A stretch of 64,000 nt of DNA from an uncultured Heliobacteriaceae bacterium (GCA_964468345.1 CAYXVZ010000024.1:2632-66631), one strand, 5' to 3'; counted from the stretch's first letter, positions 1 through 17,042 are shown. Translations and numbers: made by a program. Notes: generated by a model from the sequence alone, not told the origin.

Positions 1-258
1 CCGCAAACGAAATCCTTGACCGAGGAAGAGCGGAAAAAGGTCCCCGGCTATCCGCAGGACATGATGATGATCATGGACGATGAAGTCGCAAAGCCCGAAA
101 CATGGGGCCTTGCGCCGGGTTGGACGGCCTCCATGATGGGGATGATGACCCTCGTTCGGGTTTTGCCGGAGGATAAATACAACACGATCATGGCGATGAT
201 CAAGGAAGGCAAGAAGCCCGCGCCGAAGGCGACGCACGAACATAAACACGGCGAATAG
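1..258 (+). CDS. 3' end of a gene truncated by the window edge. C-terminal 80+ aa, Met-rich with a His-rich tail (HEHKHGE); function unknown
   Basis: Open frame continues to nt 1 in the same frame as ORF 16..258. No recognisable domain. Confidence 0.35.
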   Translation, partial: PQTKSLTEEERKKVPGYPQDMMMIMDDEVAKPETWGLAPGWTASMMGMMTLVRVLPEDKYNTIMAMIKEGKKPAPKATHEHKHGE

Positions 259-307
259 AGCAGCATCTCTTATTGGTCATTGGCCAATGAGAAATGAGCG
301 ATGATGT

Positions 308-425
308 AGAGAGAGTCCGGAATAAACAAAAATAATGGAACAGACGAATGCTTCTATCGCATTCCGTTTGTTTCATTATTTTCGTTTGTTCCGAACTCTC
401 TTCATTGTTTTGGTTGCGGCTTCGC
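308..425. repeat. Palindromic repeat family D copy 1 (hairpin arms around the ggaacaaacgaa / ttcgtttgttcc core)
   Basis: Inverted repeat aacaaaaataatggaacagacgaatgc ... gcattccgtttgtttcattattttcgtttgtt. Clear homology to 35427..35545, including the shared 3' tail gttttggttgcg.ttcgcc. Confidence 0.6.
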
Positions 426-511
426 CACTTCATGCACCTGTGGTAATACTATCCAAAAGTTGTTTGCTCTAAGCGTGGGGCTGCTGTGACAGGCGGCGAT
501 CGGTTCATGAA

Positions 512-1429
512 TCAGCGTTCCCAGGGAGCGCCCTCCCGAAAGCTGGCTTTCAAGAACTCCACGAAGATGCGGACTTTCTCCGGGACGTAACTGCGAGATG
601 GATAGAGCGCCCAGGCCGCGGCGTCGTCGAGTGCAGCCGTCACTTCGTATTCCGGGAACAGATCCACCAAAGTCCCTTCGCGCAATTCCTTCCCAATCAC
701 CCAGCGACCTTGCAGGATGATTCCCATGCCGGCCAGCGCGCATTGCTTGAGCGCCATCGCGTTGGATGTGCGCAGGAATTCGTTGATGGCGACCTCCTGG
801 CGAGCGCCTTCCCGGTCTGTGAATTTCCACGTGTTTCGACTGAAGCCCGACAGCGCCAGCAGCAGGCAACGGTGTTGTTGCAACTCGCGCGGGGTTTCAG
901 GACGGCCATACCGTTTCAGGTAAGCGGGCGAAGCGCAGACGCTTGAGATCATCGGGCAGAGCTTGTGCGCGATGAGCGTTGAGTCCGGCATCGGCCCGAC
1001 GCGGATCGCGATGTCGATGTTTTCCGCGATCAGATCCAGCAGCGAGTCCGTCCACAGCAATTCATAACGCAGATCCGGATACATTTCAGAAAACTCCGGC
1101 AACAGCGGCGTGATGTTGTGTTCGGCAAAACTGACCGGACTCGAGATTCGCAGCACGCCTTGCGGCCGATGGTTGACCTCGGAGGCCAGCAACCTCGCCC
1201 TGTTCAGTTCCTCGACCAGCGGTTCCACGCGTTCGAAATAGATCTTTCCCGCTTCCGTCAGGCCGATCTTCCGCGTGTCTCGTTGAAAGAGACGAAGATT
1301 CAATTCGCTTTCGAGCGCGGCGATCGTTCGTGAAATCGTTGCCGGGTCGACGTTCCGATCCCGCGCGACCGCCGCGAAATTTCCGCGGTTCACACACTCG
1401 ACAAAAATAGCGAGGCTTTCCGTATTCAT
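512..1429 (-). CDS. LysR-family transcriptional regulator
   Basis: N-terminal HTH (MNTESLAIFVECVNRGNFAAVARDRNVDPATISRTIAALESELNLRLFQRDTRKIGLTEAG) followed by a LysR substrate-binding domain. Internal Met at 1429 is chosen as the start; the ORF's 33-aa upstream extension has no support. Divergent from the SDR gene, the classic LysR arrangement. Confidence 0.85.
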   Translation of the reverse strand: MNTESLAIFVECVNRGNFAAVARDRNVDPATISRTIAALESELNLRLFQRDTRKIGLTEAGKIYFERVEPLVEELNRARLLASEVNHRPQGVLRISSPVSFAEHNITPLLPEFSEMYPDLRYELLWTDSLLDLIAENIDIAIRVGPMPDSTLIAHKLCPMISSVCASPAYLKRYGRPETPRELQQHRCLLLALSGFSRNTWKFTDREGARQEVAINEFLRTSNAMALKQCALAGMGIILQGRWVIGKELREGTLVDLFPEYEVTAALDDAAAWALYPSRSYVPEKVRIFVEFLKASFREGAPWER

Positions 1430-1563
1430 TCTTGCAGGTTTCGCAATGGTGATTTGCAGTTCAGTGTCTGTTTCGGCTCTCTGCATTCCAGTATATTCCG
1501 CTCCGTCGACGAATGAGGCGACAAACAATGAAGAGAAACCAGATCAACGACAGGAGGAATGTT

Positions 1564-2274
1564 ATGGAACTCAAGCAGGCAACCGTATTTCTCACCGGGG
1601 CGAATCGCGGCATCGGTCGCGCGTTGGCGGATGAACTCTATCGCAGAGGCGTCAAACGCATTTACGCCGCGACCCGCAAACCGGAAGACATCCAGGGGAA
1701 CGAGGTCATCGTGCCGGTCAAACTGGATGTCACCGACCGGCAGGCAGTGAAAGCGGCGGCGCAGCAGGCCGGCGACGCGACGATTCTGATCAACAACGCG
1801 GGCGCGCTTGCGCCGGGCAGTTTGCTGGATGCCCCGCTGGAATTGATCGCGCGCGATCTCGACACGAATTATTTCGGCACGCTGAACATGATTCGCGCCT
1901 TTGCGCCCATCATTGAAAGCAATGGCGGCGGCGCCGTCGCGAACGTGCTCAGCGTCGTTGCGCTGGCCAGCATGCCGGGCCTCGGCGGATATAGCGCCTC
2001 GAAAGCGGCGGCCTATTCAATGACGATGGCGCTTCGCGCGGACCTGCAACCCAAAGGCATTCGCGTGCACGCCGTTCTGCCGGGGCCGGTCGATACCGAT
2101 ATGGCCTCGGAAATAACGCTGCCGAAAACGAGCCCGCAGGCTGTGGCCGCGGCAATTCTGGACGGCATTCAAAATGGCGTGGACGATATTTACCCCGATC
2201 CGATGTCCGATCAGATCAGCCGCACCTGGCTCGCGAATCCGAAAGAACTCGAACGCCAGTTCGCCGCGGCCTGA
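1564..2274 (+). CDS. Short-chain dehydrogenase/reductase (SDR) family oxidoreductase
   Basis: TGANRGIGRA Rossmann motif, NNAG motif, catalytic YSASK (YxxxK). AGGAGG Shine-Dalgarno 6 nt upstream of the ATG at 1564. Confidence 0.9.
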   Translation: MELKQATVFLTGANRGIGRALADELYRRGVKRIYAATRKPEDIQGNEVIVPVKLDVTDRQAVKAAAQQAGDATILINNAGALAPGSLLDAPLELIARDLDTNYFGTLNMIRAFAPIIESNGGGAVANVLSVVALASMPGLGGYSASKAAAYSMTMALRADLQPKGIRVHAVLPGPVDTDMASEITLPKTSPQAVAAAILDGIQNGVDDIYPDPMSDQISRTWLANPKELERQFAAA

Positions 2275-2322
2275 TTCATCATCGCCGGCATCGCGAATGA
2301 TTTTCTCGAGAGATTGTATATA

Positions 2323-2385
2323 GAATTCAAGAAAAAGAATTTCATCCACGAAGTCACACGAAGTCACACGAAGAAAACCGATATC
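2323..2385. repeat. Solo arm of repeat family A' (gaattcaagaaaaagaatttcatccacgaagtcacacg), 38/38 identical to 49726..49763, followed by a tandem cacgaagtcacacgaag
   Basis: Exact 38-nt match to the left arm of the complete inverted-repeat element at 49726..49850. No matching right arm is present here. Confidence 0.6.
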
Positions 2386-2573
2386 GCCCTCGGGGCGAAG
2401 CCCAAATCGGCATCTTCGTCCGTCACAATAATGCCGCGGGAAGCAAAAAATATTCCTGAATCTGGCATTGAGAGGGGTGATGCAGGCATTTCTACAAAGA
2501 TCTTTCTCCGCTGGAGCGAGAAGATCATCCCGTACATTGAAGCGAGACTGAATCAAAGCGAACCCAACTGGTG

Positions 2574-2672
2574 ACAACGAAGAAATCAAAAGGCAAAAGG
2601 CAAAAGGATCGACCTTGAAGCCTCTTTTGCGAGATAAGGTTCGTACTTTTGCCGTTTGATTTCTTCGTTGCA
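2574..2672. repeat. Palindromic repeat family C copy 1 (caacgaagaaatcaaaaggcaaaaggcaaaagg ... cttttgccgtttgatttcttcgttg)
   Basis: Inverted arms of about 24 nt. The aaaggcaaaaggcaaa core recurs at 55548..55600. Confidence 0.6.
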
Positions 2673-3218
2673 CACCTCTGTATGCATAGAAAGGAAAGCT
2701 TCAATATGGCCGAAAACACAGGATTCACACCCGCGCTGGGAAAACTTCACGCTTGATGAATCTATTCGCGCAGAAGCGCTCACCGCTTCTTCCAAGCGGG
2801 ACCAATCACTTTCAAATAACTCAATGCTCATACATAACCGGCTTGCGGAGTAAGTGCCTGGTTATTGTGTTAGAAGCAATCAGACACGTAAGTTACTTTT
2901 TCATTTTTCCTGCCATCCTGTCTACGTTGCGTAAAAATTCGCAGTTATATTGAGGAATATCGTCCTGGACGCACTGCATGAAGAATATCCAGTAAATAGT
3001 TCTTGACTAGAACTAATAACATGGCCACAATCAGATTGAAAGAAAAGTCCTACGAGATTTGTAGGACGCAGTGATCGTTAAGGTCATGTTGTATCCCCGA
3101 TTGTTTCCCAATTTCCAATTCACGTGCCCGCCAATTAGTCGTTCAAAAATCTGCCCCTTGTATTAAGCGATGAAACTGCTCCTGGGATAGGTGTGCCCCG
3201 AAGCCGAGCCCATGCGCA

Positions 3219-5063
3219 GTGAAGTCAGCAGGTTTTTTTCAAATGGTGACTCCCCTTTTTTTGCTCTTCACATTTCTATCGGCTTTTCACATCTCATCTT
3301 TACAGGGGGAATGGCTGTATAGCACTTCACCCATGAGTCTGTCGGTGCGTATTGAGCCGCAGGAGCAAACACTGGACTTGCTCTACAATCAGGCGATTCG
3401 ATATTTAGAATCCAATCAATTGGAGCTGGCTGTTGCGGTTTTGGAAACAATACAGAGCCGTGATCCAAATTTTAAGGACGTAGCGACGAGGCTTGATATT
3501 GCCCGGAAAAAGCTCGTCCTGAGACAGCGCGGCGAGCAGTTAAGAATCGAATACACGCGAGCGGTCGCAGCCCTGAAGGTGGAGGACTGGCCTAATGTGA
3601 TCGTCTCATTGGAACGGGTTATTGAAATCAATCCACAGTACAAGGATGCGAATGCGCTGCTGACGATGGCGAGAAAAAACAGCGAGGCATCCAGGCTTTA
3701 TGATGAAGGAATTCGATTGCAAAGCCAGGGCGATTTAAAGGGGGCCCTGGATCGCTTCCGCAAAGCCCAGGGAACGAACCCGGCCTATCGGGACCTGCGC
3801 GAGTTGATGCCCAAACTGAATGCACAACTGGATCGCATCAACAAAGACGCGCAGGTGTTGTATGTGGAAGCGATGAACCAGATGCAGGCCAAAAACTGGG
3901 ACAGCGCCGTCACGACCCTGGAAAAAATTCAATCTCTCTCTCCCGGATATTCGGATGTGCAGGCAAAGCTCACGGAGGCCAATGCAAATCGGTTGGCGGA
4001 TGCCAAGCTATCGAACGTAACGCGTCGCCGCCTGGAAATGCTGTATCTTTCAGCCGGCCTGCTGGCGTTGATTACGCTTCCGCTGGTTGGATTATTGATT
4101 TTCTCGCCGGTCAGCCGCGCAAAAGCTCTCGCGCTGAGCAGAAATTATGCTGCCGCGGTCGAAATCTATGAAGCCGTTCTCAAAAGCACGCCCGGGAGGA
4201 TGGGGTTGTATAAGGAACTCGCCGATTTATATGTACTGCTCAATCGGCGAGACAAGCGGGCATTACAGATCTACAAAACGGTTCTTCAATTCGATCTCAA
4301 AGCCAAAAAGCGCGACGAAATCGAAATGATCGTCTCTCAGAATTATATGGGAGAGGAAGATATCGATATCGACAGGTTGCAGGGACTTCATCTCGGAACG
4401 CCTCGCGTCAAAACGATGAGTTGGACGGAACACCTTGAAGCCTGTCTGACGGCAGTGGAACAGTTCGATAATGCAGGCCTCGATAATGCACTCGCCCGCG
4501 CGGCAATGGATCTGAGCCATCCGGTGCTGTTGACGCAGGTGATTATGCCGATGATGCAAACCATCGGACAACAGTGGGCAGAGGGGACCATGCGCGTGAA
4601 ACACGAACATATGGCCTCTGCCACGGTCCGCAACTTTCTCGGCACGCTCATCGAGTCATATACGCCGCCGCCCGATGCGCCGGCGATCATCGTCACAACA
4701 CCTAAAGGGCAGTTGCATGAACTCGGGGCCCTGGCGGCCGGCATCGTCGCGGCTTCGGAAGGATGGCGCGTTCTCTATCTGGGCCCCAATCTGCCCGCGG
4801 ATGAAATCGCGGCGTCCGTCAAAAAGATGCGCGCCAAAGCCGTCGCTCTCAGCTTGATCTGGCCGGATGGAAATCCGGACGTCGATGCCGAGATTCAGAA
4901 ATTGCGGAAGCACCTCGGTGTTTCGGTCGCATTGATCGTTGGCGGACGGGCTGCCGAAAGCCATAGCGCAACACTGAACGAAGTCGGTGCGATCCGAATC
5001 CACTCGGTTCACGAATTGATCAGCTTTCGTGAAATTCTCGAAAACGTCCGACTGAAATATTGA
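3219..5063 (+). CDS. Membrane-anchored TPR-repeat protein with a C-terminal CarH-type cobalamin (B12)-binding light-sensor module. There is no DNA-binding domain.
   Basis: N-terminal hydrophobic segment, TPR-like helical repeats, an internal TM helix (LSAGLLALITLPLVGLLIF), then a B12-binding_2 helix bundle carrying the W-x9-EH motif (WAEGTMRVKHEH). A Rossmann B12 domain follows with a variant DxHxxG (QLHELG), S-L (ALSLIW) and GG (IVGG). GTG start at 3219; an alternative ATG is at 3243. Confidence 0.7.
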   Translation: MKSAGFFQMVTPLFLLFTFLSAFHISSLQGEWLYSTSPMSLSVRIEPQEQTLDLLYNQAIRYLESNQLELAVAVLETIQSRDPNFKDVATRLDIARKKLVLRQRGEQLRIEYTRAVAALKVEDWPNVIVSLERVIEINPQYKDANALLTMARKNSEASRLYDEGIRLQSQGDLKGALDRFRKAQGTNPAYRDLRELMPKLNAQLDRINKDAQVLYVEAMNQMQAKNWDSAVTTLEKIQSLSPGYSDVQAKLTEANANRLADAKLSNVTRRRLEMLYLSAGLLALITLPLVGLLIFSPVSRAKALALSRNYAAAVEIYEAVLKSTPGRMGLYKELADLYVLLNRRDKRALQIYKTVLQFDLKAKKRDEIEMIVSQNYMGEEDIDIDRLQGLHLGTPRVKTMSWTEHLEACLTAVEQFDNAGLDNALARAAMDLSHPVLLTQVIMPMMQTIGQQWAEGTMRVKHEHMASATVRNFLGTLIESYTPPPDAPAIIVTTPKGQLHELGALAAGIVAASEGWRVLYLGPNLPADEIAASVKKMRAKAVALSLIWPDGNPDVDAEIQKLRKHLGVSVALIVGGRAAESHSATLNEVGAIRIHSVHELISFREILENVRLKY

Positions 5064-5124
5064 CTTCTCCATGAACGAACGGCTTGCTCTTTGAATAAGC
5101 AGAGCGCTTTCCAAGGAAGCTAAG

Positions 5125-6351
5125 ATGTCAATATGTGATTTATGCGATCGTCAGATTGGTGAATCTCCTCGCGAATTTTCGGCCGAGCAGGTGAAACGCG
5201 CCGTGCAGGTGGGATTGCGTCCCGGGGGAATCGTTCTTGGCGATAACGAAACCAGCCATGCAGGGGCGGGAAAAACTCTTTCGCAAAAATGGCTCCCCTC
5301 TCTATTTTTCGGCAAGGCCAGAGAACGCCGGGTCAATCATCTCGCGGTAGAAAACCCGGATGAATGGATCGAAAAAGTCCTGGCGGATTCGACCAACTGG
5401 TCGGTCTGTTCCGTTTGCGGATCGTTAATTGACAGATGCCTGTGGAAGTTCGAGCAGTCACGACAACTCACGTCGCAATCACCAATAGATCCTCCCACAA
5501 AAGCCCAACCCGAAATCAGACAGAAGGAAGATATGGAAGAACTCACCGCGCCGCAACAACCGCAGTTACTTGCCACGCAGGATGTGGACCCCGCACAGAT
5601 TGCAACCATGACGGACCTGCAACTTGATCGGCTCCCTATCGGCGTCATCACCGTCGATTTTGATGGCGACGTGGTTTTTTATAATGAATGGCAAGCTAAA
5701 TTCAGCGGGATTCCGCGTTATCTGGTGTTGGAGCGTAACTTTTTCGGAGAAATTGCCCCCTGCACCCGCGTGCGAGCCTTTGGGGGGCGGTTTTTTGCCT
5801 ATGTGGACGATTTGAAGGCGACGCCAAATTTTTCCCGCATCGAAACCTTCGACTATGTATTCACATTCCTTCAGTTCGAATACGTGAAGATTGTCTTCGC
5901 ACCGGCAAGAGTCCCGGGGACGATCAACATCATGGTTTTCAAGCAAAACTATGAGCGGTTCCACACGCCTTCCGATCTGTACCGCACTCTCGACCTTGCC
6001 GCCTTGCGGCACATGACGCCGGAGGAAAAAGACATGATGTCATACGGCGTTATCACACTCGATAAAGACGATCAGGTGATCTCCTATAATGACTGGGAAG
6101 CACGCCTGGCGGGCCTTCCGAGGCATAAGGCGCTCCATCAACATTGGTTTAAACAACTGGCTCCCTGCACGCGTGTAAAAGATTTCGAAGGAAGATACCG
6201 AGCCTTTAAAAATGGCAAAATGGATTCCGAGATGTTTGAATTCATTTTCCCGTTTTCCCAAGGGGCGCAATTCGTCAATTGTATTTTCCTGCCCGCAGAT
6301 GAGGACGGGACCGTCGACATCGTTATTTTCAAACGAAAACTGATAATTTAA
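5125..6351 (+). CDS. Protein with an N-terminal Cys-rich (CxxC...CxxC) region and two tandem photoactive-yellow-protein (PYP)-like PAS domains
   Basis: Two copies of the PYP hallmark: NFFGEIAPCTRVRAFGGRF (Cys213, nt 5761-5763) and HWFKQLAPCTRVKDFEGRY (Cys348, nt 6166-6168). Each is preceded by a PYP-like YN(E/D)W(Q/E) chromophore-pocket segment. The N-cap MTDLQLDRLPIGVITVD resembles PYP MDDGQLDGLAFGAIQLD. Confidence 0.7.
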   Translation: MSICDLCDRQIGESPREFSAEQVKRAVQVGLRPGGIVLGDNETSHAGAGKTLSQKWLPSLFFGKARERRVNHLAVENPDEWIEKVLADSTNWSVCSVCGSLIDRCLWKFEQSRQLTSQSPIDPPTKAQPEIRQKEDMEELTAPQQPQLLATQDVDPAQIATMTDLQLDRLPIGVITVDFDGDVVFYNEWQAKFSGIPRYLVLERNFFGEIAPCTRVRAFGGRFFAYVDDLKATPNFSRIETFDYVFTFLQFEYVKIVFAPARVPGTINIMVFKQNYERFHTPSDLYRTLDLAALRHMTPEEKDMMSYGVITLDKDDQVISYNDWEARLAGLPRHKALHQHWFKQLAPCTRVKDFEGRYRAFKNGKMDSEMFEFIFPFSQGAQFVNCIFLPADEDGTVDIVIFKRKLII

Positions 6352-6370
6352 AGGCGGTTTGTTATTTCAT

Positions 6371-6518
6371 CGTTAAATCAAAGCAAGTAAAAAGGCACAA
6401 ATCGCGAAGAAACGAAGATCACGAAGAAAGACGAGTTAATAAACCTTCTCTCTCTCCTTCGTGATCTTCGTTTTTTCGTGATTTGTATCTCTTTCTTGCT
6501 CGGCTTGATTTAGCTCCG
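6371..6518. repeat. Palindromic MITE/REP-like repeat family A copy 1 (cacgaagaaacgaaga-type)
   Basis: Inverted repeat aaatcgcgaagaaacgaagatcacgaagaaag ... ccttcgtgatcttcgttttttcgtgattt, flanked by ttaaatcaaagcaag / cttgctcggcttgattta ends. It lies between convergent genes. Confidence 0.65.
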
Positions 6519-6920
6519 CTCTTTGCCTCGGGATGCCTTTGCGCCGGCAGGCCGTGGCTGATAGGGGATTCCCGTGGTCGTTTCGCTGATCTCGAATTTA
6601 TATCGGGCAAGGTCTTTTACCTTGCCCGACGCTTCGATCGGAATGCCTTCCGCAATCAGCAGGTCGCGTTGCGTGTGACCGTATCGATCTGCATTCTTCG
6701 CCTTAACCTCGCCTTTTTCACCAACGACGCGATACCAGGGGACCGTTTCTTTCTCGTCTTCATCGAGCATCGTCAGGATATAGGCAACGTGCCGGGACAT
6801 CACCTCGATATGGTCGCCGATGGATTTATAAGTTGCGACCTTGCCGAAGGGAATCGACCCGGTCATTGCCAGAATCTGGCTTTTGATTCGCGCAAATGCT
6901 TCGGATTGGGCCATAGACAA
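6510..6920 (-). CDS. Alkyltransferase-like protein (ATL; MGMT/Ogt DNA-binding fold without the catalytic Cys)
   Basis: The MGMT C-terminal domain active-site PCHRV motif is replaced by PWYRVV (Cys->Trp), the ATL signature. Its start is 1-2 nt downstream of the pstB' stop, so it is co-transcribed with the pst operon. Confidence 0.7.
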   Translation of the reverse strand: MSMAQSEAFARIKSQILAMTGSIPFGKVATYKSIGDHIEVMSRHVAYILTMLDEDEKETVPWYRVVGEKGEVKAKNADRYGHTQRDLLIAEGIPIEASGKVKDLARYKFEISETTTGIPYQPRPAGAKASRGKERS

Positions 6921-6921
6921 A

Positions 6922-7694
<773 letters not shown>

Positions 7695-7698
<4 letters not shown>

Positions 7699-8459
7699 CC
7701 AAATATGCCGTTGACGTATTCGTAGGTTTGCCGGCTCGCCGGGTGATCCGAGAACACCGTCGCGGTGTCGTTCAACTCCACAATCTCGCCTTTCCAGAGA
7801 AACATCGTGCGGTCCGCCAGGCGTCGCGCCTGTTGCGTCAGATTGGTCACGAGGATGATCGTTATTTGCGATCGCAATTCCTGGAGGGCTTCTTCGATGC
7901 GCATCGTCGTGACCGGATCGATGGCGATCGAAAACTCATCGAGACAAAGGACCTCGGGATTGTGCGAAAGGGCGCGGGCGATGGTCAGCCGCTGTTGCTG
8001 GCCGCCGGAAAGTTTCGTCCCCAATGTATCGAGGCGGTCTTTTACCTCGTCCCACAACGCGGCTTTGCGCAGGCACGATTCAACGAGTTCATCGAGCCGC
8101 CCTTTTTCCCGTAAGCCGGCCATGCGCGGCGCAAAAGCGACATTATCATAAATTGTCATCGGCAACCCGACCGGCAGCGGCGCGACCATGCCGATCTTTT
8201 GCCGCAACTCGGAGACGTTTCTGATCCGGGCGGTGTCCGCGCCGTCCAGCTTCACCGATCCGCTCACCGTCGCCATCGCCGTGAATTCCAGCGTGCGATT
8301 GAGCGCCTTGAGCATGGTGGTCTTGCCCGATTGCGCCGGGCCGATCACGGCCAGCACTTCATTCGCATAGACATCGAAGGAAATGCCCTTGAGCGCGGCG
8401 AGCTTCCCATACGCGACGCGCAAGTCCGTGACTTCGATTTTTTTCTCTCGGTTCACCAT
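7695..8459 (-). CDS. pstB: Phosphate ABC transporter ATP-binding protein PstB, paralog 1. The signature is consensus; Q-loop, D-loop and H-loop are degenerate.
   Basis: GPAQSGKTT Walker A, consensus LSGGQQQRLTIAR signature. The Q-loop Gln is absent (MVAPLPV), Walker B/D-loop reads VLCLDEFSIAID, and the H-loop His is replaced by Asn (ILVTNLTQ). Start chosen at MVNREKK (ATG 8459); the 53-aa upstream extension would overlap pstA. Confidence 0.85.
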
Positions 8460-9379
8460 TTCTTGTGCGAGCGCAGGTACAGGCGGAATGCGATCGAGAC
8501 CGCATTGACCGCAAGGACCGTGCTGAGCAGCACGACAGCCGTCCCATAGGGAAGGGCTTCCGGCACATCGGGCACCTGTGTCGACACCGTGAACAGATGC
8601 ATCGAAAGCGCCATGCACTGATCGAATAATCCGTAGGCGAAAAGATCTCCGCTTTTGATAGCTTTATAGAACACCGCGCCCGTGAACATGACGGGCGCCG
8701 TTTCGCCGGCCGTGCGCGAAACCTGCAGGATAATGCCGGTCAAAATGCCGCTGATGGAGTTCGGCAGAACGACGTGGCGGATCGTCTGCCACCGCGTCGC
8801 GCCCACGTTCCAGCATGCTTCGCGAAAGGCGCGGGGCACGGCGGCCAGCGATTCCTTGGTGCCCGCGATGATCACCGGCAGCGTCATAATCGCCAGCGTC
8901 AGCGAAGCCGCCAATATCGAGCGCCCCATGCCGGCAAAAACGACAAAGGCGCCGAGACCGAAAAGCGCATGCACGATGCTCGGAACCCCCGCCAGATTTA
9001 CGACCGCCAGATTGACCAGCCGCGTGGACCACGTATCCGGCGCATATTCATGCAGATAGACCGCCGCCAACACTCCCACGGGCGTGGCCACAGCGAGGGA
9101 AATCAACACCAGATAAATTGTGCCGAGCAGGGCCGGCCAGAGGCCGCCCTCGCGCATTCCCCGAATCGGCGGATCGAACAGAAAATTGATTGAAAGAATA
9201 GGCGCCGCGCGAACCAACAAATAGAGAACGATCGCGACCAGCGGCACAATCATCAGCAGCGCCATGGTAAAAAAGATGGTTTGCGCGATGCGCTCCGTGC
9301 GCTCTTTGCGACGCACAAAATTCGTTTTCGTAAAACGCGCGGAAGGCGCGGACGCGGGAATCTCCGGAAGGGTATTCAT
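8453..9379 (-). CDS. pstA: Phosphate ABC transporter permease PstA
   Basis: Multi-TM protein with the EAA-like GATRWQTIRHVVLPNSISGILTGIILQVSRTAGETAPVMFTG motif. Confidence 0.9.
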   Translation of the reverse strand: MNTLPEIPASAPSARFTKTNFVRRKERTERIAQTIFFTMALLMIVPLVAIVLYLLVRAAPILSINFLFDPPIRGMREGGLWPALLGTIYLVLISLAVATPVGVLAAVYLHEYAPDTWSTRLVNLAVVNLAGVPSIVHALFGLGAFVVFAGMGRSILAASLTLAIMTLPVIIAGTKESLAAVPRAFREACWNVGATRWQTIRHVVLPNSISGILTGIILQVSRTAGETAPVMFTGAVFYKAIKSGDLFAYGLFDQCMALSMHLFTVSTQVPDVPEALPYGTAVVLLSTVLAVNAVSIAFRLYLRSHKKW

Positions 9380-10269
9380 GCTTTTCTCCGAATGCCGCGC
9401 ACGATCAGGTCGGCGCTGAGATTAACCACAAAGGTAATGGTGAAAAGCAGGATGCCGATGATGAACAGGACCTGATAATGGTCGGAGCCGACCGCGGATT
9501 CGCCGAGTTCGGCCGCGATCGTTGCGGTCAGCGTGCGAACCGGATCGAGCACGCCGTGCGGAATGCGGACCGAGTGGCCCGTGGCCATCAGCACGGCCAT
9601 CGTTTCGCCGATTGCGCGGCCAACGCCAAGCAACACCGCGGCCAGCAGTCCATTGCGTGCCGCGGGCAACAATACGCGGTATATCATCTGCCAGCGCGTC
9701 GCGCCCAGCGCCAATGCCGCTTCGCGATAGGTGTCGGGCACGGCTTTGAGCGCATCTTCCCCGATCGAAACAATGATGGGCACGCTCATCAAGGCCAGGA
9801 TGATGCCGCCGTTGAGCACATTCAACCCGATCGGCGCATCGAAGAGCCGGATGATCAGCGAATTCATCAGCGTCAGGCCGACAAAGCCCCAGACCACCGA
9901 TGGAATCGCGGCCAGCAGTTCGATGACGATCTTGAGCGTTTCGCGATTTCGCGGCGAGCAGAATTCAGACACATATATGGCGGCGCAAATCCCGAAAGGC
10001 ACCGCCAGAAACATGGCAAGCAGCGTCACGCTCAACGTCCCCGCGATCAGCGCAAGGCCGCCGTACCGAACATGGCTCGGTGAAGTCGGATACCATTCGA
10101 TGCTGGTGAAAAACTGCGCCAGACTGAACCGGCCGCTCAGCAGCAGGCCGGCCCCCTCGCGGAAGACGAAAAAGAAGATGCCGAATACGAATAAAATCGC
10201 GCTGGCGCCGCAGAGGCGGATCAGAATTTCAATTGCCCGTTCGGTGAGGATTTCGTGGCGTGCTCGCAA
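9376..10269 (-). CDS. pstC: Phosphate ABC transporter permease PstC
   Basis: GATRWQMIYRVLLPAARNGLLAAVLLGVGRAIGETMAVLMATG motif. 4-nt overlap with pstA. Confidence 0.9.
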   Translation of the reverse strand: MRARHEILTERAIEILIRLCGASAILFVFGIFFFVFREGAGLLLSGRFSLAQFFTSIEWYPTSPSHVRYGGLALIAGTLSVTLLAMFLAVPFGICAAIYVSEFCSPRNRETLKIVIELLAAIPSVVWGFVGLTLMNSLIIRLFDAPIGLNVLNGGIILALMSVPIIVSIGEDALKAVPDTYREAALALGATRWQMIYRVLLPAARNGLLAAVLLGVGRAIGETMAVLMATGHSVRIPHGVLDPVRTLTATIAAELGESAVGSDHYQVLFIIGILLFTITFVVNLSADLIVRGIRRKA

Positions 10270-10284
10270 GGGGCCTCTTTCCGC

Positions 10285-11217
10285 TTATTTGGCCAGCACA
10301 TTCAGACCGGTTTGTTTTTCGCGAGGCACATAGCCGCTCTTGAGTACCAGTTCCTGTCCGGTTTCGTGCTGCACCCAACTGAGATATTGCTTCACGGTCT
10401 CTTTCGGTTCGCCGACAGTATACATATACAACGGGCGCGAGATGGGGTAGGCGCCGCTTTGCGTATTCTCAACCGTGGGCGCATACGCCGGTTCGCCGGC
10501 TTTGCGCGCCACGCGCAACATTTTCACGTGCGGCGTCGCATATCCCATGCCGCTATAGCCGATTGCGCACGGCGTTCGGCTGACGAGTTCGACGACATCT
10601 TTCGAACCGTGCAGATCGAGCGTGCCCAGTTTGAAATCGCCCGTTTTCCCGAGCACCGCTTCGCGAAAGTAGTAATAAGTGCCCGAATTCGATTGGCGGC
10701 TGACGAGAATCATTTCATTGTCGCGGCAGCCGGGCATCTGCACGCCGAGATCGCTCCAGCCGCGCACGGCCCCTTTTTCCGCATAAATCGCGGCCAGTTG
10801 TTCCAGCGTGATTTCGTTCAATGGATTGTCGGTTCGGACAAAAATCGCCAGCGCGTCATAGCCGACAATGTGCAGGACAGGTGTCTGGCCGGTCGCGGCC
10901 TTGACCTTGGCGATTTCCTCTTCACTCATCAGCCGGCTGCAGTTTGCGATATCGGCTGTGCCGCTGATCAGCGCCGCAACGCCCGTTCCCGACCCACCGC
11001 CCGAAACTTCCACCGATACGCCGGGGGCGACTCGTGCGTATTCTTCCGCCCAGGCCTGCGCAAGATTCACCATCGTGTCCGAACCGATGTTCTGAATCAC
11101 CGCGCGCGGTCCGGTTTCTTGCGCATCGTCCGATGCACAGGCTGCCATGAGCAGGCTCAAAAAGAGAAGTGATATCAGGAGAGAAATGGACTTGGTGCGA
11201 TACGTTAGGTGCGCCAT
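10285..11217 (-). CDS. pstS: Phosphate-binding lipoprotein PstS
   Basis: Lipoprotein signal MAHLTYRTKSISLLISLLFLSLLMAAC. PstS motifs GSDTMVNLAQAWAEEY, GGGSGTG, TADIAN. Start at ATG 11217; the 27-aa extension to 11298 would give an implausibly long n-region. Confidence 0.88.
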   Translation of the reverse strand: MAHLTYRTKSISLLISLLFLSLLMAACASDDAQETGPRAVIQNIGSDTMVNLAQAWAEEYARVAPGVSVEVSGGGSGTGVAALISGTADIANCSRLMSEEEIAKVKAATGQTPVLHIVGYDALAIFVRTDNPLNEITLEQLAAIYAEKGAVRGWSDLGVQMPGCRDNEMILVSRQSNSGTYYYFREAVLGKTGDFKLGTLDLHGSKDVVELVSRTPCAIGYSGMGYATPHVKMLRVARKAGEPAYAPTVENTQSGAYPISRPLYMYTVGEPKETVKQYLSWVQHETGQELVLKSGYVPREKQTGLNVLAK

Positions 11218-11605
11218 ACACGTTTTCACAGGCTTTAGTATTTCGGATCGGAGCGCCAGATGAGCCAGCGCTCCGGTGGCGCTTCGTATGCTTATCAAAT
11301 AAGGAAAGATTCCTTCAGACTGAGTATGACAACCGGGTGTTAAGGGGGTGCAAAATGCACATCAAATGCATGTTAATTTCCGCGCTGGACGGCAAGAAAG
11401 ATAATCCTCGCCTGATACGGCCATAAAAAATCCTGAACATGCCTTGTGTATCGTGACACTGACATCCGGTCGCTTCGCATTCCAAGTCTTACAAACGAAG
11501 AGTCGCAGTCAGCAACATTCAAGTGACCGGATGTTCATTCGTGGCTTTCAGGCATTGCGGCGAAGGCCGAATGCGACGACGCTCACAGTCCAAACATCCA
11601 AATGC

Positions 11606-12406
11606 ATGTTCAAAACCATCGGATCTCAAATTGCCCCTTTGATCCGCACGGACGTCTATGACGTGCGGCTCGCTGGCAGCTTTGCGGAAATTGACGCGGC
11701 AATGCGGTTGCGATTCGAAGTCTTCAATCTCGAATTGCAGGAAGGCCTCCAATCTTCTCATAGTCGCGGGTATGACCAGGATGCCTACGATGCCTATTGC
11801 GACCACTTGATTCTCAAGGAAGTGGCGACGGGGCAAGTCGTCGGCACCTATCGTTTGCTGCGCAGGACCACCGCCGAGCGCAACATCGGCTTTTATTCCG
11901 AAAACGAATTCGACCTGCGCCCGTTCAAGGAATTGCGCGGTGAAATCATCGAACTCGGCCGATCCTGCATTGCGCAATCGCATCGTTCCTTCGCCGCGAT
12001 CAACCTCTTGTGGAAGGGAATCGTGCAGTACGCCATGCAGCACAACGCGCAATACCTGTTCGGCTGCTGCAGCCTGCATTGTTCGTCTCCCGAAGACGTG
12101 TTGCCGATTTATTCCTATCTGCGGTCACGGTGCCTGACGCCGGAGCGATTTCGCGTGCAGCCCGTGCCGTCGTGCCGCTTGCCGCTGGAGGAGGAATTCC
12201 TTCAACCCGGGCAGGAACGGGATGTCTGGCAACGGATTCCGCCGGTGATGAAAGGCTATCTGCGCGCCGGCGCCATGATCTGCGGCGCGCCGGCCTATGA
12301 CGCGGAATTCGGCACGGCCGACCTGCTGGTTCTGCTCGAAATGAGGAAGATTTCGGACCGCTATCGGATTCGGTATCAGGGGCCGACCGAAGCTCAATTG
12401 TATTGA
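11606..12406 (+). CDS. OlsB-like / N-acyl amino acid synthase family acyltransferase (COG3176 putative hemolysin GNAT-like)
   Basis: Similarity to ornithine-lipid N-acyltransferase/hemolysin-like GNATs (IRTDVYDVRLAGS..., GTYRLLRRTTAERNIGFYSENEF...). The start is uncertain: 11606 (MFKTIGS), 11531 or 11444. Confidence 0.55.
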   Translation: MFKTIGSQIAPLIRTDVYDVRLAGSFAEIDAAMRLRFEVFNLELQEGLQSSHSRGYDQDAYDAYCDHLILKEVATGQVVGTYRLLRRTTAERNIGFYSENEFDLRPFKELRGEIIELGRSCIAQSHRSFAAINLLWKGIVQYAMQHNAQYLFGCCSLHCSSPEDVLPIYSYLRSRCLTPERFRVQPVPSCRLPLEEEFLQPGQERDVWQRIPPVMKGYLRAGAMICGAPAYDAEFGTADLLVLLEMRKISDRYRIRYQGPTEAQLY

Positions 12407-12433
12407 TTCGCTGCTCAGATAAAGGATCGATTG

Positions 12434-13705
12434 ATGGAATCCGGCAGTCTCTCCGATCGCCTGTACCGCAATTTCGGCCGCAGTCATATCTTCGCGGTGA
12501 CGTGGCTGGCCTATGCCGGATTTTATCTGTGCCGAAAGAATTTCAGTGTGACCATGCCGTTGCTGGTCGAGCAGGTGGGCTGGAACAAGCTGCAATTGGC
12601 CAATGTGCTGTTCGGCTATAGCCTGATGTATTGCACCTGGCAGTTCGTCAACGGGTATCTGTCCGATCGCCTGGGCGCGCGGCTTGTCGTGGGGGCGGGA
12701 TTGTTCATTGCGATTTTTTCGAATCTCGCGATGGGCATGACGGCATCGCTAGGACTGATGCTGGTGCTTAACTGCATCAACGGCGCGGCACAGGCGACAG
12801 GATGGTCCGGCCTCGTCAAAACCATGTCGGCCTGGTATGTTCCGCGCGAACGCGGCGTCATCATGGCCTGGTGGAGCACGAACTATGCGCTCGGCGGGTT
12901 TCTGGCGACGCTCTTCGCGACCTGGTCGATTTCGCAATCCGTGCTGTTGACGAAATTCACCTGGCAGCGCGGCTTTTGGATGCCCGCCCTTCTGCTTGCG
13001 CCGATCGCGATTCTGTTTGTGCTGCTGGTGCGAAATCATCCCCCGGGAGCCTCTGACACCAGCGCGGGATCGGCATCGCCCCTTCATGATTCTTCCAACC
13101 TTGGCGAGATTCTCCGAAATCGCGTGGTATGGACGATTTCGCTGAGTTATTTCTTCGTCAAGGCCACGCGCTATTCCTTTCTTTTCTGGTTGCCGTTATA
13201 CCTGACCGAGCGTCTTCGCTATGAGAAATCGGACGCCGGCTATTTTTCCTCGATTTATGAACTGGTCGGTTTCACGGGCGTAATTCTCGCGGGCTATGTC
13301 TCGGACCGCCTGATGCGGTCACAGCGCTTTCCGGTGGTGACGATGATGTTGTGGTGTCTCGCGGGATTGTGCTTTCTGCATCCGATGGTGGCGAGCATGG
13401 GGATGATGTTCAATGCGATCGGCGTGGGGCTGATCGGGATGATGACCTTCGGCCCGGATACGATGATCGCGGGGCCGGCCGTGCAGGATGCCGTTTCAAC
13501 GCGGGCCGCCGGCACGGCGGCGGGGTTCGTCAACGGCGTCGGCTCGGCGGGGCAGTTGCTGTCGCCCTATCTGGTCGCGGTGGTGGCGGACCAATTCGGA
13601 TGGGATCGGCTGTTTTATCTTTTCGGCGTCTTTGCGTTGATCAGCGGCGCCATGCTTATGAGCTTATGGAAAACATCGCAAACACCGGCTCCGGTGGAAG
13701 TTTGA
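12434..13705 (+). CDS. MFS transporter, organophosphate:Pi antiporter (GlpT/UhpC-like) family
   Basis: 12-TM MFS with OPA-family motifs (YAGFYLCRKNFSVTMP, GWSGLVKTMSAWYVPRERG). ATG at 12434, preceded by an AAGGA Shine-Dalgarno. Confidence 0.85.
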   Translation: MESGSLSDRLYRNFGRSHIFAVTWLAYAGFYLCRKNFSVTMPLLVEQVGWNKLQLANVLFGYSLMYCTWQFVNGYLSDRLGARLVVGAGLFIAIFSNLAMGMTASLGLMLVLNCINGAAQATGWSGLVKTMSAWYVPRERGVIMAWWSTNYALGGFLATLFATWSISQSVLLTKFTWQRGFWMPALLLAPIAILFVLLVRNHPPGASDTSAGSASPLHDSSNLGEILRNRVVWTISLSYFFVKATRYSFLFWLPLYLTERLRYEKSDAGYFSSIYELVGFTGVILAGYVSDRLMRSQRFPVVTMMLWCLAGLCFLHPMVASMGMMFNAIGVGLIGMMTFGPDTMIAGPAVQDAVSTRAAGTAAGFVNGVGSAGQLLSPYLVAVVADQFGWDRLFYLFGVFALISGAMLMSLWKTSQTPAPVEV

Positions 13706-14496
13706 AAGCCGTCATTCTGGATTGGGCCGGAACGACCATTGATTTCGGATCTTTCGCTCCGACTTCCGTCATTTTGGAAGTCTTCGAACGCCGCGGCCTC
13801 GCCATCACGCCGGAACAGGCCCGCGCGCCGATGGGCCTGCCGAAAAAAGATCATCTGCGGGCGGTCCTGCAAATGCCCGCGGTCGCGGCCGCATGGCAGG
13901 AGAAGTTCGGCAGTCCTTTCGGACCGGCTGACCTGGAGGAGATGTACGCCGATTTCGTGCCCCTGCAGATGGATTGTTTGCGCGAATATGCCACGCTGAT
14001 TCCGGGCACGCTTGAAACGGTCGCCACGCTTCGACGGCAGGGCTTGCGAATCGGCTCGACGACCGGGTACACCGACGAGATGATGGCGATACTCGCGAAA
14101 GAGGCGATTCGCCAGGGATATGAACCGGATTGCATCGTCGTTCCCTCGCAAGTGCCGGCCGGCCGGCCGGCGCCCTATATGTGCTGGCTCGCGGCAACCA
14201 AGATGCAGGTTTATCCCGCGGCGGCCGTCGTCAAGGTCGGCGACACGCAGGCGGACATCCAGGAAGGTTTGAACGCGGGAATGTGGACGGTCGCCGTTGC
14301 GATGACCGGCAACGAACTCGGCCTTCGCGAATCGGAGCTTGCCGCGCTTCCGCCGGACGACGTCGAACTGCGTCGGGTTCGCGCCCGGCAGCGCCTCGAA
14401 GACGCGGGCGCGCATTTTGTCATCGACGGCATTGCGGACCTGCCGGCGACGCTCGAAACGATCCGGGAAATGTTGGCCAGTGGCGAACGACCTTAA
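13666..14496 (+). CDS. phnX: Phosphonoacetaldehyde hydrolase (phosphonatase) PhnX, HAD superfamily
   Basis: LKAVILDWAGTTIDFGSFAP (HAD motif I with the PhnX-type DWAGTT) and later HAD motifs (GSTTGY, KVGDTQADIQEG). The start is an internal ATG at 13666 that overlaps the MFS gene's 3' end. The ORF's upstream 105-aa Gly/Arg-rich extension is rejected. Confidence 0.85.
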   Translation: MENIANTGSGGSLKAVILDWAGTTIDFGSFAPTSVILEVFERRGLAITPEQARAPMGLPKKDHLRAVLQMPAVAAAWQEKFGSPFGPADLEEMYADFVPLQMDCLREYATLIPGTLETVATLRRQGLRIGSTTGYTDEMMAILAKEAIRQGYEPDCIVVPSQVPAGRPAPYMCWLAATKMQVYPAAAVVKVGDTQADIQEGLNAGMWTVAVAMTGNELGLRESELAALPPDDVELRRVRARQRLEDAGAHFVIDGIADLPATLETIREMLASGERP

Positions 14497-14508
14497 AGGA
14501 GAATTCGC

Positions 14509-15060
14509 GTGCCCCGACAAACCATCGATGAAATTTCGCAGTTGTATCTGGAACGCGCTCAGGGAGCGTATTTCGGCGAGGCCGTCTCGGAACTCGAACA
14601 TGCCCTGCAGGCCGCCGATCTCGCTTCGCGAAATGGTGAAAGCGAGAGTTTGATCCTCGCCTGCCTGCTGCATGACATCGGGCATCTTTTGCATCGCCTG
14701 CCCGAGAACGTTGCGGACTTCGGCATCGACGCGAAGCACGAAACCATCGGCGCCGCCTGGCTGGCTCGGCGCTTCGATCCGGCCATCACGGAACCCATTC
14801 GCCTGCATGTCGATGCCAAGCGGTATCTTTGCGCGACAGAACCCAGCTATTTACAGGGACTCTCGCCCGCCTCAATGCTGAGCCTGAAGCTTCAGGGCGG
14901 CGTGATGACGCCAGAAGAAGCCGCTGATTTTGAAAAACTACCCTATGCGCAGGATGCCATTCGGCTGCGCCGCTATGATGAGCAGGCCAAGGTGACCGGT
15001 CTGCGTGTTCCCGCATTCGATGCCTATCAATTGATGATGACGGCGGCAATAGTTCGGTAA
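14509..15060 (+). CDS. phnZ: HD-domain protein of the PhnZ family (mixed-valent diiron oxygenase that cleaves C-P bonds of 1-hydroxy-aminoalkylphosphonates)
   Basis: PhnZ is recalled here from memory, not from a database search. Its motifs align closely: YFGEAVSELEHALQAADLASRNGESESLILACLLHDIGHL, HVDAKRYL, RRYDEQAKVTGLRVP. Confidence 0.6.
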   Translation: MPRQTIDEISQLYLERAQGAYFGEAVSELEHALQAADLASRNGESESLILACLLHDIGHLLHRLPENVADFGIDAKHETIGAAWLARRFDPAITEPIRLHVDAKRYLCATEPSYLQGLSPASMLSLKLQGGVMTPEEAADFEKLPYAQDAIRLRRYDEQAKVTGLRVPAFDAYQLMMTAAIVR

Positions 15061-15070
15061 GAAAACGAGA

Positions 15071-15110
15071 GCACGAAACAAACGAAAGAGAACTCAGTTT
15101 GCCTGTTTCG
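15071..15110. terminator. Candidate bidirectional hairpin between the convergent phnZ-like and FAD-oxidase genes
   Basis: 8-bp stem acgaaaca/tgtttcgt with a 23-nt loop in the 73-nt convergent intergenic gap. No clear U-tract. Confidence 0.3.
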
Positions 15111-15133
15111 TACTCCCGTTATCATCTTAACTT

Positions 15134-16282: not shown

Positions 16283-16284
16283 GT

Positions 16285-16884
16285 TTATGCGTTCTGAATA
16301 GAAATAGTTTCGCCCAATGCCGCATTTCTTCCTTCGAGGGGATAGAGGCGAAAGAGCAAAAGTTCCACAATGACAACCATCAGTCCCACCACGATCGCGC
16401 AGACCGGCCAGAAACTCCAGTAATTGCTGAACCAGTTCGCGCAGGCTGTATAGGGCGTATGGGCGATGTTTACATTGAGAACCGGTTTGGTCGTCAAGCG
16501 AGTCACATATTGCCAGAATAAAAACCACGCCCAGGCAGGGAACCAACTCCAGCCGGTGGCGCGCACTTTTCTCATTGCATACATCGCCAGCAGAAAACCG
16601 CCCAGGTGAGAAGTGATCGATGCAATCCAGATCTCCTGTGTTACCCATGCATCGATCAACCACATCGGCAATCCGATCACCAGCCAGATCGATGCGATTC
16701 GAATTAATAACGCCGACCCGGCCGCCATTGCAATCGCCAGCATCAGCGTGGTGATGTGGCAGTTATACATGATCCAGCCCGGCTCGCCAAAATCAGCGTA
16801 TTGCCAGAGCCGGTACAGAAAGATCAGAAGCGGAAGGACCGCCATCCATTGAAATCGTTTCGTGAGCCAGGGGTGCTTTGTCAT
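16285..16884 (-). CDS. Integral membrane protein of unknown function (about 6 TM, Trp-rich), co-transcribed upstream of the FAD oxidase
   Basis: Hydrophobic segments throughout. Its stop abuts the FAD oxidase start (1-nt gap). Confidence 0.5.
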   Translation of the reverse strand: MTKHPWLTKRFQWMAVLPLLIFLYRLWQYADFGEPGWIMYNCHITTLMLAIAMAAGSALLIRIASIWLVIGLPMWLIDAWVTQEIWIASITSHLGGFLLAMYAMRKVRATGWSWFPAWAWFLFWQYVTRLTTKPVLNVNIAHTPYTACANWFSNYWSFWPVCAIVVGLMVVIVELLLFRLYPLEGRNAALGETISIQNA

Positions 16885-17012: not shown

Positions 17013-17042
17013 GTGGCGGCTTATACACGATATTGCAAACAG

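Follow-up and report, generated by a model that had tools for sequence, protein, structure and literature searches.

Two adjacent genes in a 64,000-nt stretch of DNA from an uncultured Heliobacteriaceae bacterium (GCA_964468345.1, CAYXVZ010000024.1:2632-66631; hereafter the window) encode a membrane tetratricopeptide repeat (TPR) protein ending in a CarH-type cobalamin-binding domain (CBD), termed P1, and a protein with two tandem photoactive yellow protein (PYP) domains, termed P2. We postulate, at somewhat better than even odds, that P1 and P2 constitute an operon-like, horizontally mobile light sensor module of two proteins and two chromophores. The components belong to known families, and the P1-P2 architecture is not described in the open-access literature consulted. 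A check of open reading frames (ORFs) agrees with an earlier annotation made from the window alone (the original prediction), which had placed the two genes at 3219-5063 and 5125-6351. The features of the locus are collected in Table 1.

The C-terminus of P1 carries the W-x9-EH string WAEGTMRVKHEH at residues 453-464. In the PDB alignment, this string matches W131 and E141-H142 of Thermus thermophilus CarH (TtCarH) column by column, and His500 of P1 falls on TtCarH H177. Both Pfam profiles that had been proposed for verification score above their gathering cut-offs, namely B12-binding_2 (PF02607; residues 407-477, 3e-11, 43.7 bits against 23) and B12-binding (PF02310; residues 490-585, 6e-10, 39.5 bits against 32.1). 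The best solved relatives of P1 are the CBDs of TtCarH (E ~1e-18, phmmer against the PDB). Among NCBIfam models, the CarH equivalog NF052513 ranks first (1.2e-23); P1 matches it at model positions 100-270, the CBD part only, and the score of 83.7 bits is far below the full-length cut-off of 400. A MerR helix-turn-helix domain has no Pfam match in P1. By these comparisons, P1 is not a CarH protein and only bears a CarH-type CBD.

With the CBD alone (residues 395-614) as query, more than 100 MerR-CBD proteins of the CarH/LitR type were retrieved at 1e-52 to 1e-64. The P1 domain is 45-56% identical to such proteins, some of them named CarH by their source, across ~95% of its length. In an alignment of 30 CBD sequences, P1 keeps all 30 invariant columns. 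These comprise G450-x-x-W453, G456 and E463-H464 in the helical bundle, T494-P495-x-G497-Q498-x-H500-E501-x-G503-A504 in the Rossmann domain, and further columns within G-W, L-G-P-x-L-P-A, L-S and G-G-R. A signature of light-responsive CBDs, GxxW/EH/GxxH/GxxxP, was proposed and experimentally supported in a 2024 study (PMC11796333); P1 carries all four motifs, as GQQW, EH, GQLH and GPNLP. The predicted axial ligand His500 lies within TTPKGQLHELGA, which is followed by GPNLP. The original prediction of a CarH-type B12 module is therefore borne out by Pfam, by the PDB matches and by the full set of invariant residues, and the domain is predicted to bind adenosylcobalamin (AdoCbl) with a light response. 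A second W-x9-EH string, in the ORF at 44255-45355, was rejected as a chance occurrence, as this ORF has no B12 domain.

The CBD is attached to a membrane TPR scaffold rather than to a MerR domain, as anticipated; TPR matches, a transmembrane helix and the lack of a MerR match in Pfam all agree on this point. In all five P1 homologues, the N-terminal segment consists of a charged start, a hydrophobic run and small residues, and the N-terminal domain of P1 is probably exported. AlphaFold2 (AF2), with an alignment of six sequences only, models residues 47-270 as all-helical with a recurring short-short-long helix pattern at a predicted local distance difference test (pLDDT) value of ~90. The transmembrane segment is a single strong hydrophobic helix with a Kyte-Doolittle 19-residue mean of up to 2.4. 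The TPR pair that follows it forms the best-conserved block among the P1 homologues. Taken together, the predicted topology comprises an exported four-repeat TPR domain, one transmembrane helix, and a cytoplasmic TPR pair with the CBD. A cytoplasmic position of the CBD would also fit its loading with AdoCbl.

P2 is related to PYPs throughout its C-terminal part. All 33 PDB sequence matches come from PYP or Ppr-PYP, whose APCT aligns on that of P2 (phmmer, 1e-12 to 1e-10); these E-values, like that of P1 to CarH, lie far outside chance expectation. The matches 1xfn, 7av6 and 1odv span residues 294-385. The NCBIfam model photo_yellow (TIGR02373) is the only strong match, with two matched stretches; one other match is marginal. 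The search with this model, which had been suggested beforehand, gave a strong E-value of 5.4e-33, but the score of 113.7 bits summed over two domains stays below the equivalog cut-off of 143.05. The model detects only ~20% of PYP homologues (PMC9664959). In the AF2 model of P2, the PYP domains reach pLDDT values of 70-90. Their best single-domain fold match in Foldseek is Ppr-PYP, with a template modelling (TM) score of 0.89, a root mean square deviation (rmsd) of 1.9 Å and 36% identity, and Halorhodospira (Hhal) PYP matches at a TM score of ~0.8. Generic tandem-PAS proteins, by comparison, superimpose at an rmsd of at least 10 Å, mostly ~15 Å. A search of plasmids with P2 (tblastn) matches genes annotated as pyp. 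As between PYP and generic PAS domains, the sequence matches in the PDB, the best folds and the position of the cysteines all identify P2 as a PYP protein.

Cys213 lies in NFFGEIAPCTR and Cys348 in HWFKQLAPCTR, and both align on PYP Cys69. The original prediction had placed both in an NFF..APCT motif. Both cysteines do stand in APCT, and the NFF part applies to domain 1; domain 2 reads HWF..APCTR instead. Both domains retain the residues corresponding to Hhal Ile31, Tyr42, Asn43, Phe63, Ala67-Pro68-Cys69-Thr70 and Phe96. They differ at Glu46 (Gln in domain 1, Glu in domain 2), Thr50 (Ser, Ala), Arg52 (Ile, Leu) and Phe62 (Phe, Trp); the residue alignment thus confirms the predicted Gln190 and Glu325 at position 46. 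Among the four P2 family members (including P0001-P0003), Tyr42 is constant in domain 1 and position 46 is Gln or Glu, while domain 2 has Glu46 throughout and Tyr or Phe at position 42. In every PYP domain of the four, Cys69 is retained along with Tyr42, Glu46 or both, a pattern reported for functional PYPs that keep Cys69 (PMC9664959). Gln46 occurs in only ~2.6% of PYPs, and the absorbance shifts associated with Ser50 and with Ala50 tend to be opposite in direction (PMC12826048). The combinations Gln46/Ser50 in domain 1 and Glu46/Ala50 in domain 2 make it reasonable to expect two differently tuned units. With ~39% identity, the two domains resemble each other no more than they do other PYPs; their identity to Hhal PYP is 30-39%. 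Domain 2 is the best-conserved part of the P2 family.

The PYP pair is preceded by an N-terminal domain with four cysteines (4-Cys), for which the predicted CxxC...CxxC arrangement was recovered with CxxC at residues 4 and 95. The AF2 model of its core has pLDDT values of 71-82. The family (including P0013-P0044) follows the pattern CDLC...YSASQ..AV.aGLRP...W..VM.D.TDW..C..C. Of 1.84 billion representatives, 34 match it at E<1e-3, mostly stand-alone proteins of 77-250 residues. The domain is sometimes duplicated (P0014), and in a few members it is part of a fusion, with WD40 (P0033), with MacB_PCD+BON (P0044) or with membrane segments (P0015). No relative of the domain was found in Pfam, NCBIfam or the PDB. 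APOBEC matches to 'SWxxCxxC' were discarded, as they occur at E-values of at least 0.013 and at the motif level only.

Co-conservation and joint mobility connect P1 and P2. Among 5.8 billion clustered proteins, P1 and P2 have six matches each at the thresholds used, of which about five and about four, respectively, are close relatives. A search of 185,579 species genomes with the P2 family alignment returned nothing close and one remote single-PYP locus, and a metagenome scan returned only the known L003 contig and single-domain PYPs. P1 lies directly upstream of P2 on the same strand in four lineages, represented by the window, L001, L002/L003/L004 and L006/L028. Protein identity to the window pair is ~91-93% in L001, 54-58% in L002/L003/L004 and 48-70% in L006/L028. 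Every intact P2 homologue has P1 directly upstream, with short or overlapping spacing, and apart from the pair itself these loci have no neighbour in common. Positions 2991-6355 of the window, a cassette of 3.4 kb, are 90% identical in DNA to 5869-9231 of L001, and beyond the first few bases around the P2 stop codon no similarity is left. Such a match with sharp edges and unrelated flanks indicates that the P1-P2 pair is a mobile unit. The significance that had been attached to the pairing is therefore upheld by its co-conservation in four lineages and its movement as a cassette.

In L001, a 24-kb Logan contig (SRR29398965) seen in five samples, the cassette is inserted in antisense orientation between two tail genes, one for a DUF2460 distal-tail protein and one for a BR0599/gp84 tail-assembly (hub-like) protein. 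The surrounding tail module (1-17227) is complete, with genes for the tape measure, NlpC/P60, a tail protein, the major tail protein and the terminator. This module is siphovirus-like or RcGTA-like, and the cassette occupies a moron-like position within it.

The folded domains of both proteins are under purifying selection. Between the window and L001, dN/dS is 0.107 for whole P1 and 0.25 for whole P2. Within P1, it amounts to 0.02 in the four-helix bundle and 0.03 in the Rossmann domain of the CBD, 0.03 in the transmembrane helix and 0.08-0.11 in the TPR domains (0.08 for residues 47-270). Within P2, it amounts to 0.16 in PYP domain 1 and 0.14 in PYP domain 2, and rises to 0.67 in the loop of residues 37-76 and 0.89 in the linker. 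The 4-Cys core has no non-synonymous change in residues 1-36 (dN/dS 0); for residues 77-110, with two non-synonymous and no synonymous changes, the ratio is not computable.

Two derivatives join parts of P1 and P2 in frame. In L027 (2843-4663), the TPR-transmembrane-TPR part runs into the 4-Cys domain, and the CBD, PYP domain 1 and most of PYP domain 2 are missing, with the tail of the latter kept. In L005 (1-762), from a Blastocatellia metagenome-assembled genome, the C-terminus of the CBD continues into the second half of PYP domain 1 at a shared 'RAA'. These fusions are suggestive of a physical association of P1 and P2. They may also be 'blind' variants, decay products or pseudogenes, or assembly artefacts.

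We propose the following scheme, in which chromophore loading, P1-P2 contact, an oligomeric switch and the output are inferred. P1 would be a bitopic inner-membrane protein with its TPR domain in the periplasm, and its TPR pair and CBD in the cytoplasm. The CBD would hold AdoCbl through His500 and the Wx9EH cap and, by analogy with CarH, would oligomerise in the dark. UV-to-green light would cleave the Co-C bond and alter the CBD assembly. P2, a soluble protein, would carry p-coumaric acid as a thioester at Cys213 and Cys348, and each PYP domain would undergo a reversible blue-light photocycle. P2 would most likely dock on the cytoplasmic TPR/CBD part of P1, possibly via the 4-Cys domain, and the complex would merge a blue-light signal that is fast and reversible with a B12 signal that is slow and consumes its cofactor. 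As neither protein has an enzymatic or DNA-binding output, the signal presumably exits by protein contacts. The readout would then be a change in what the TPR scaffold contacts, and it may reach through the membrane to the periplasmic side. The nearest precedent for a PAS photoreceptor acting on an adjacently encoded CarH/LitR-family protein is PmSB-LOV/PmlR2, in which the LOV protein reportedly binds PmlR2 when lit (PMC9758184). Our confidence in any particular output is much lower than in the module as such. One far-reaching version strikes us as improbable: a self-contained two-colour complex, transferable horizontally and perhaps by phages, in non-phototrophic, probably acidobacterial, soil bacteria, in which the direct partner of PYP is a B12-photoreceptor membrane TPR protein. 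Light sensed in the cytoplasm would then be passed outward through the inner membrane to the exported TPR domain, an inside-out signalling to the envelope with no kinase, cyclase or DNA-binding step.

Several observations weigh against a two-chromophore module, beginning with those on the CBD. The equivalent of the upper-ligand His132 of TtCarH is Ala454 in P1. TtCarH H132A photolyses yet largely fails to disassemble (PMC10442372), and for P1 a CarH-like disassembly switch can therefore not be assumed. Among the 30 closest relatives, this column is variable, with Arg in 14, Ala in four and His in another four, so that His is not a requirement of the subfamily. His462, two residues before H464 (HEH), is present in 27 of the 30. 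The AF2 model of the CBD is of low confidence (pLDDT 40-65), with compatible secondary structure, and retrieves CarH CBDs in Foldseek at a TM score of ~0.47 and an rmsd of 7-9 Å. As this model is too poor to judge the fold, the assignment of the domain rests on its sequence.

These points bear on the alternative that survives best, which we nevertheless regard as unlikely, namely that only P2 senses light and that the CBD serves as a docking or effector domain, or senses whether cobalamin is available; class II LitR, the effector of an adjacent short LOV protein, would be the model. The PmSB-LOV/PmlR2 pair offers a precedent, although there the LOV protein reportedly contacts the N-terminal domain of PmlR2 and not its CBD (PMC9758184). 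Ala454 would also agree with it, since this change weakens the light-driven switch of TtCarH. P1, however, keeps the full AdoCbl/light signature and all invariant residues of MerR-CBD proteins, and the very low dN/dS of 0.02-0.03 in the CBD likewise speaks against this alternative. Furthermore, AdoCbl bound to any protein is intrinsically light-labile, as established in B12 photochemistry.

Other observations that speak against the module concern the link between the two proteins. The L011 locus has a P1 homologue with no adjacent P2. The P2 homologue of L002 lacks the 4-Cys domain, which can therefore not be a universal docking element. The evidence comes from four or five lineages, all of them metagenome assemblies and some with frame breaks. 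L006 (963-1100 against 2-994) and L028 (3075-3088) encode the same P2 protein (P0002), with P1 frame breaks at different positions: one assembly has its break near residue 570, whereas that of the other falls between TPR and CBD. A true gene fission between TPR and CBD in L028 was considered and rejected, as L006 with its identical P2 has a fused P1 and a different break. Since the breaks differ, sequencing or assembly error or population-level decay is at least as likely as a split-gene architecture. P1 and P2 might accordingly be independent photoreceptors with separate, unlinked partners, adjacent through co-transfer only. We rate this slightly lower than light sensing by P2 only. L011 fits such a picture, and most PYPs are single-domain proteins with unlinked partners (PMC12826048). 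The P1-P2 order is nonetheless constant in all four intact P2 homologues despite ~50% protein divergence and unrelated flanks, and the in-frame fusion derivatives also count against independence.

The last points against the module concern the chromophores and the output. Motif scans of the 64-kb window, and Pfam searches of its 30 largest other ORFs, agree with the original prediction in finding neither TAL (PF00221) nor an AMP-binding ligase such as 4-coumarate-CoA ligase (pCL; PF00501). No cobalamin gene was found in the window (nor any carotenoid gene), and motif scans of the fetched flanks of the relatives were negative for chromophore and cobalamin genes as well. In the largest survey, TAL occurs in only 5% and pCL in 32% of pyp operons (PMC12826048); their absence is therefore normal and not strong counter-evidence. 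Neither P1 nor P2 has a recognisable output domain, and the loci share no conserved third gene. A chemical sensor, in which neither domain is photoreceptive, the PYP-type PAS domains bind another ligand or none, and the CBD reports B12 status, would suit the missing TAL and pCL genes, the TIGR02373 score under its cut-off and the divergence of both proteins within their families. We consider it improbable, as Cys69, Tyr42, Glu/Gln46 and the pocket positions (Ile31, Phe62, Ala67, Pro68, Phe96) are conserved in both domains and in the homologues, and absence of TAL and pCL nearby is the norm. Least probable is a phage accessory (moron) of a prophage or an element resembling a gene transfer agent, coupling for example light to the host envelope state or particle release, with the window copy as a remnant: the L001 position between distal-tail and hub genes, in a contig recurring across samples, and a cassette GC content at third codon positions (GC3) below that of the window neighbours speak for it, but the L001 phage proteins have no homologue in the window, the three other contexts are non-phage, and searches of 50,697 phage genomes and 2.9 million viral contigs yielded no homologue.

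Table 1. Features of the P1-P2 locus (nucleotide positions counted from the first letter of the window; aa, residues of the respective protein)
Feature	Position	Strand	Basis
Promoter-like site TTGACT-17-CACAAT, 5' edge of conserved cassette	3003..3031	+	consensus scan
P1, membrane TPR protein with C-terminal CarH-type CBD	3219..5063	+	ORF, Pfam, NCBIfam, PDB, homologues P0007-P0011
P1: signal-peptide-like or anchor segment, aa 1-28	3219..3302	+	hydropathy; comparable segment in every P1 homologue
P1: probably periplasmic TPR-like domain, four ~52-aa repeats, aa 47-270	3357..4028	+	TPR Pfam matches, AF2
P1: transmembrane helix, aa 275-298, LYLSAGLLALITLPLVGLLIFSPV	4041..4112	+	hydropathy; kept in all homologues
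P1: predicted cytoplasmic TPR pair, aa 300-376	4116..4346	+	Pfam TPR_19, TPR_14; AF2 pLDDT 78-91
P1: CBD four-helix bundle (B12-binding_2) with GQQW and W453-x9-E463-H464 (nt 4575-4610)	4422..4658	+	PF02607
P1: CBD Rossmann-type B12-binding domain, predicted lower axial ligand His500 (nt 4716-4718)	4674..5060	+	PF02310
P2, 4-Cys domain, linker and two PYP domains, 408 aa	5125..6351	+	ORF, NCBIfam photo_yellow 5.4e-33
P2: 4-Cys (C4, C7, C95, C98) zinc-ribbon-like domain, poorly conserved inserted loop aa 37-76	5125..5454	+	CxxC positions
P2: PYP domain 1, aa 151-278; Tyr186, Gln190, Ser194, Cys213 (nt 5761-5763)	5575..5958	+	Ppr-PYP/Hhal PYP alignments, Foldseek
P2: PYP domain 2, aa 279-408; Tyr321, Glu325, Ala329, Cys348 (nt 6166-6168)	5959..6348	+	PDB 1xfn, 7av6, 1odv

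P1 comprises 614 residues from a GTG start codon. Its start is uncertain; an in-frame ATG at 3243 would give 606 residues, the version in the public gene call. P2 starts 61 nt past the P1 stop codon, and a Shine-Dalgarno-like AAGGAAG sits 7 nt 5' of its ATG. The consensus scan that located the promoter-like site has no significance by itself. Both of its hexamers and their spacing are kept in the 90%-identical L001 cassette, with the similarity starting just upstream, at 2991 of the window. The cassette has a GC content of 0.49-0.53 and a GC3 of 0.56-0.61, and the flanking genes have higher values (0.66-0.78). An Rfam scan of the whole window gave no match, so neither a B12 riboswitch nor another known RNA is placed near the two genes.

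Two kinds of repeats lie close to the cassette. A near-perfect 25-nt inverted repeat (2575-2670; 96% complementary, 46-nt spacer) is located ~330 nt upstream of the left cassette edge. A small ORF on the minus strand (2586-2831), with no family match, has its 3' end within this repeat. A dispersed palindromic repeat resembling repetitive extragenic palindromes (REP-like), with the core CGAAGAAACGAAGATCACGAAG, is present in 10 copies within three mismatches, against 0 expected (6389-6494, 17279-17300, 22423-22497, 31987-32061, 40938-40959 and 52346-52419). The copies are mostly intergenic inverted pairs ~52 nt apart, and one copy, whose arms are 38 nt long, follows the P2 stop codon directly, between convergent genes.

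The cassette is flanked by genes for a LysR regulator, an SDR protein and an MGMT-like protein, followed by pstBBACS. Parts of the window (6922-11298 and 29428-52145) resemble a phosphate-scavenging region, with pstS-C-A-B and a second pstB-like gene at 6922-11298, a phytase-like protein (29428-31857), a phosphoesterase (46874-49540) and a PhoX alkaline phosphatase (50196-52145). The window also holds an insertion sequence transposase (27377-28945), glycosyltransferases, a TPR-CHAT protein and four genes for CarboxypepD_reg+OMP_b-brl_4 outer-membrane proteins. The latter resemble a type that we take to be common in Acidobacteriota.

A separate PYP-like family was observed in two proteins from unrelated contigs (P0005, L007 8001-9071; P0006, L009 8001-9065). 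Each has a single N-terminal PYP-like domain, with ARCT in place of APCT and the cysteine kept, and a C-terminal domain of ~230 residues. Their genes are translationally coupled, by a stop/start overlap, to an upstream Ser/Thr protein kinase gene.

The module, if it operates as proposed, would be the first in which p-coumarate and B12 photochemistry are paired. The B12 photoreceptors would gain a membrane-anchored architecture that is neither enzymatic nor DNA-binding, and the PYPs a natural tandem of one Gln46 and one Glu46 domain. Both chromophore systems are in use in optogenetics and in light-responsive materials, fields in which a natural two-colour protein-protein switch could be useful. 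Should chromophore binding fail, the pair would still represent a rare, mobile two-gene sensor. Although PYP is among the most studied photoreceptors, no experiment has yet identified its downstream partner (PMC9664959, PMC12826048). A PYP protein with one constant genetic partner makes the partner question directly testable with two recombinant proteins.

The view that the PYP-B12 pairing is undescribed is consistent with recent surveys of PYPs and B12 photoreceptors. A 2025 survey, which covers 984 PYPs, 153 multidomain proteins and 113 operons, gives as partners PHY, HK, GGDEF/EAL, MCP, V4R and REC, the domains carried by known multidomain PYPs, together with pCL, TAL and BLUF (PMC12826048). 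Tandem PYPs, cobalamin domains and TPRs are not among these partners, and the P2 architecture is absent among the 153 multidomain proteins. The 2022 PYP family paper likewise contains no tandem PYP, cobalamin domain or TPR (Xing et al. 2022, PMC9664959). A CBD survey reports HTH, DGC, bilin-binding, GAF, MEDS, ANTAR, DICT and PDE partners, and no TPR or membrane scaffold. The open-access full-text literature yielded nothing relevant on tandem PYPs or on a CBD photoreceptor with TPRs.

Compared to CarH/LitR (TtCarH, PDB 5C8D/8C31), P1 has, by sequence, the same bundle and Rossmann CBD, with Wx9EH, a lower axial His in xxHExG, GxxW and GxxxP. In contrast to these proteins, it has no MerR DNA-binding domain or DNA-binding output, and its CBD ends a membrane protein with predicted exported and cytoplasmic TPRs; relative to TtCarH, it has Ala for His132 and the conserved His462 (HEH). 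P2 shares the PAS fold, Cys69 in APCT, Tyr42, Asn43, Glu/Gln46 and the pocket residues with the PYP family (Hhal PYP; Ppr-PYP, PDB 1MZU), at TM scores of 0.8-0.9 to its model. It differs in that two PYPs follow one another in one chain, behind an uncharacterised 4-Cys domain and a long linker. In Pseudomonas mendocina, the gene of a PAS-type blue-light sensor, PmSB-LOV, likewise adjoins a gene for a CBD protein of the CarH/LitR family, and the sensor reportedly acts on this class II LitR, PmlR2, by binding it in a light-dependent manner (PMC9758184). There, the sensor is a short flavin LOV protein and PmlR2 a soluble DNA-binding repressor, whereas P1 keeps all AdoCbl signature residues and has no DNA-binding domain.

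Two further systems combine light sensors of different colour. Photocobilins or photoglobin-CBD proteins (B12 and biliverdin; PDB 8J2W-8J2Y), whose CBDs are among the PDB sequence matches of P1 (E ~1e-9), also join a CarH-type CBD to a second chromophore module that widens the spectral coverage. Their bilin sits in a globin-like domain that is fused to the CBD within one polypeptide, and many of them have a diguanylate cyclase as output, while the second module would here be a PYP on a separate protein with no enzymatic output. The PYP-phytochrome fusions Ppr and Ppd, of which Ppr-PYP is the closest solved relative of P2 domain 1, similarly combine a PYP with a second photoreceptor of a different colour. 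Those fusions use a bacteriophytochrome on the PYP chain itself as second sensor, and their output is a kinase or c-di-GMP, whereas the second sensor would here be a B12 domain on a membrane partner.

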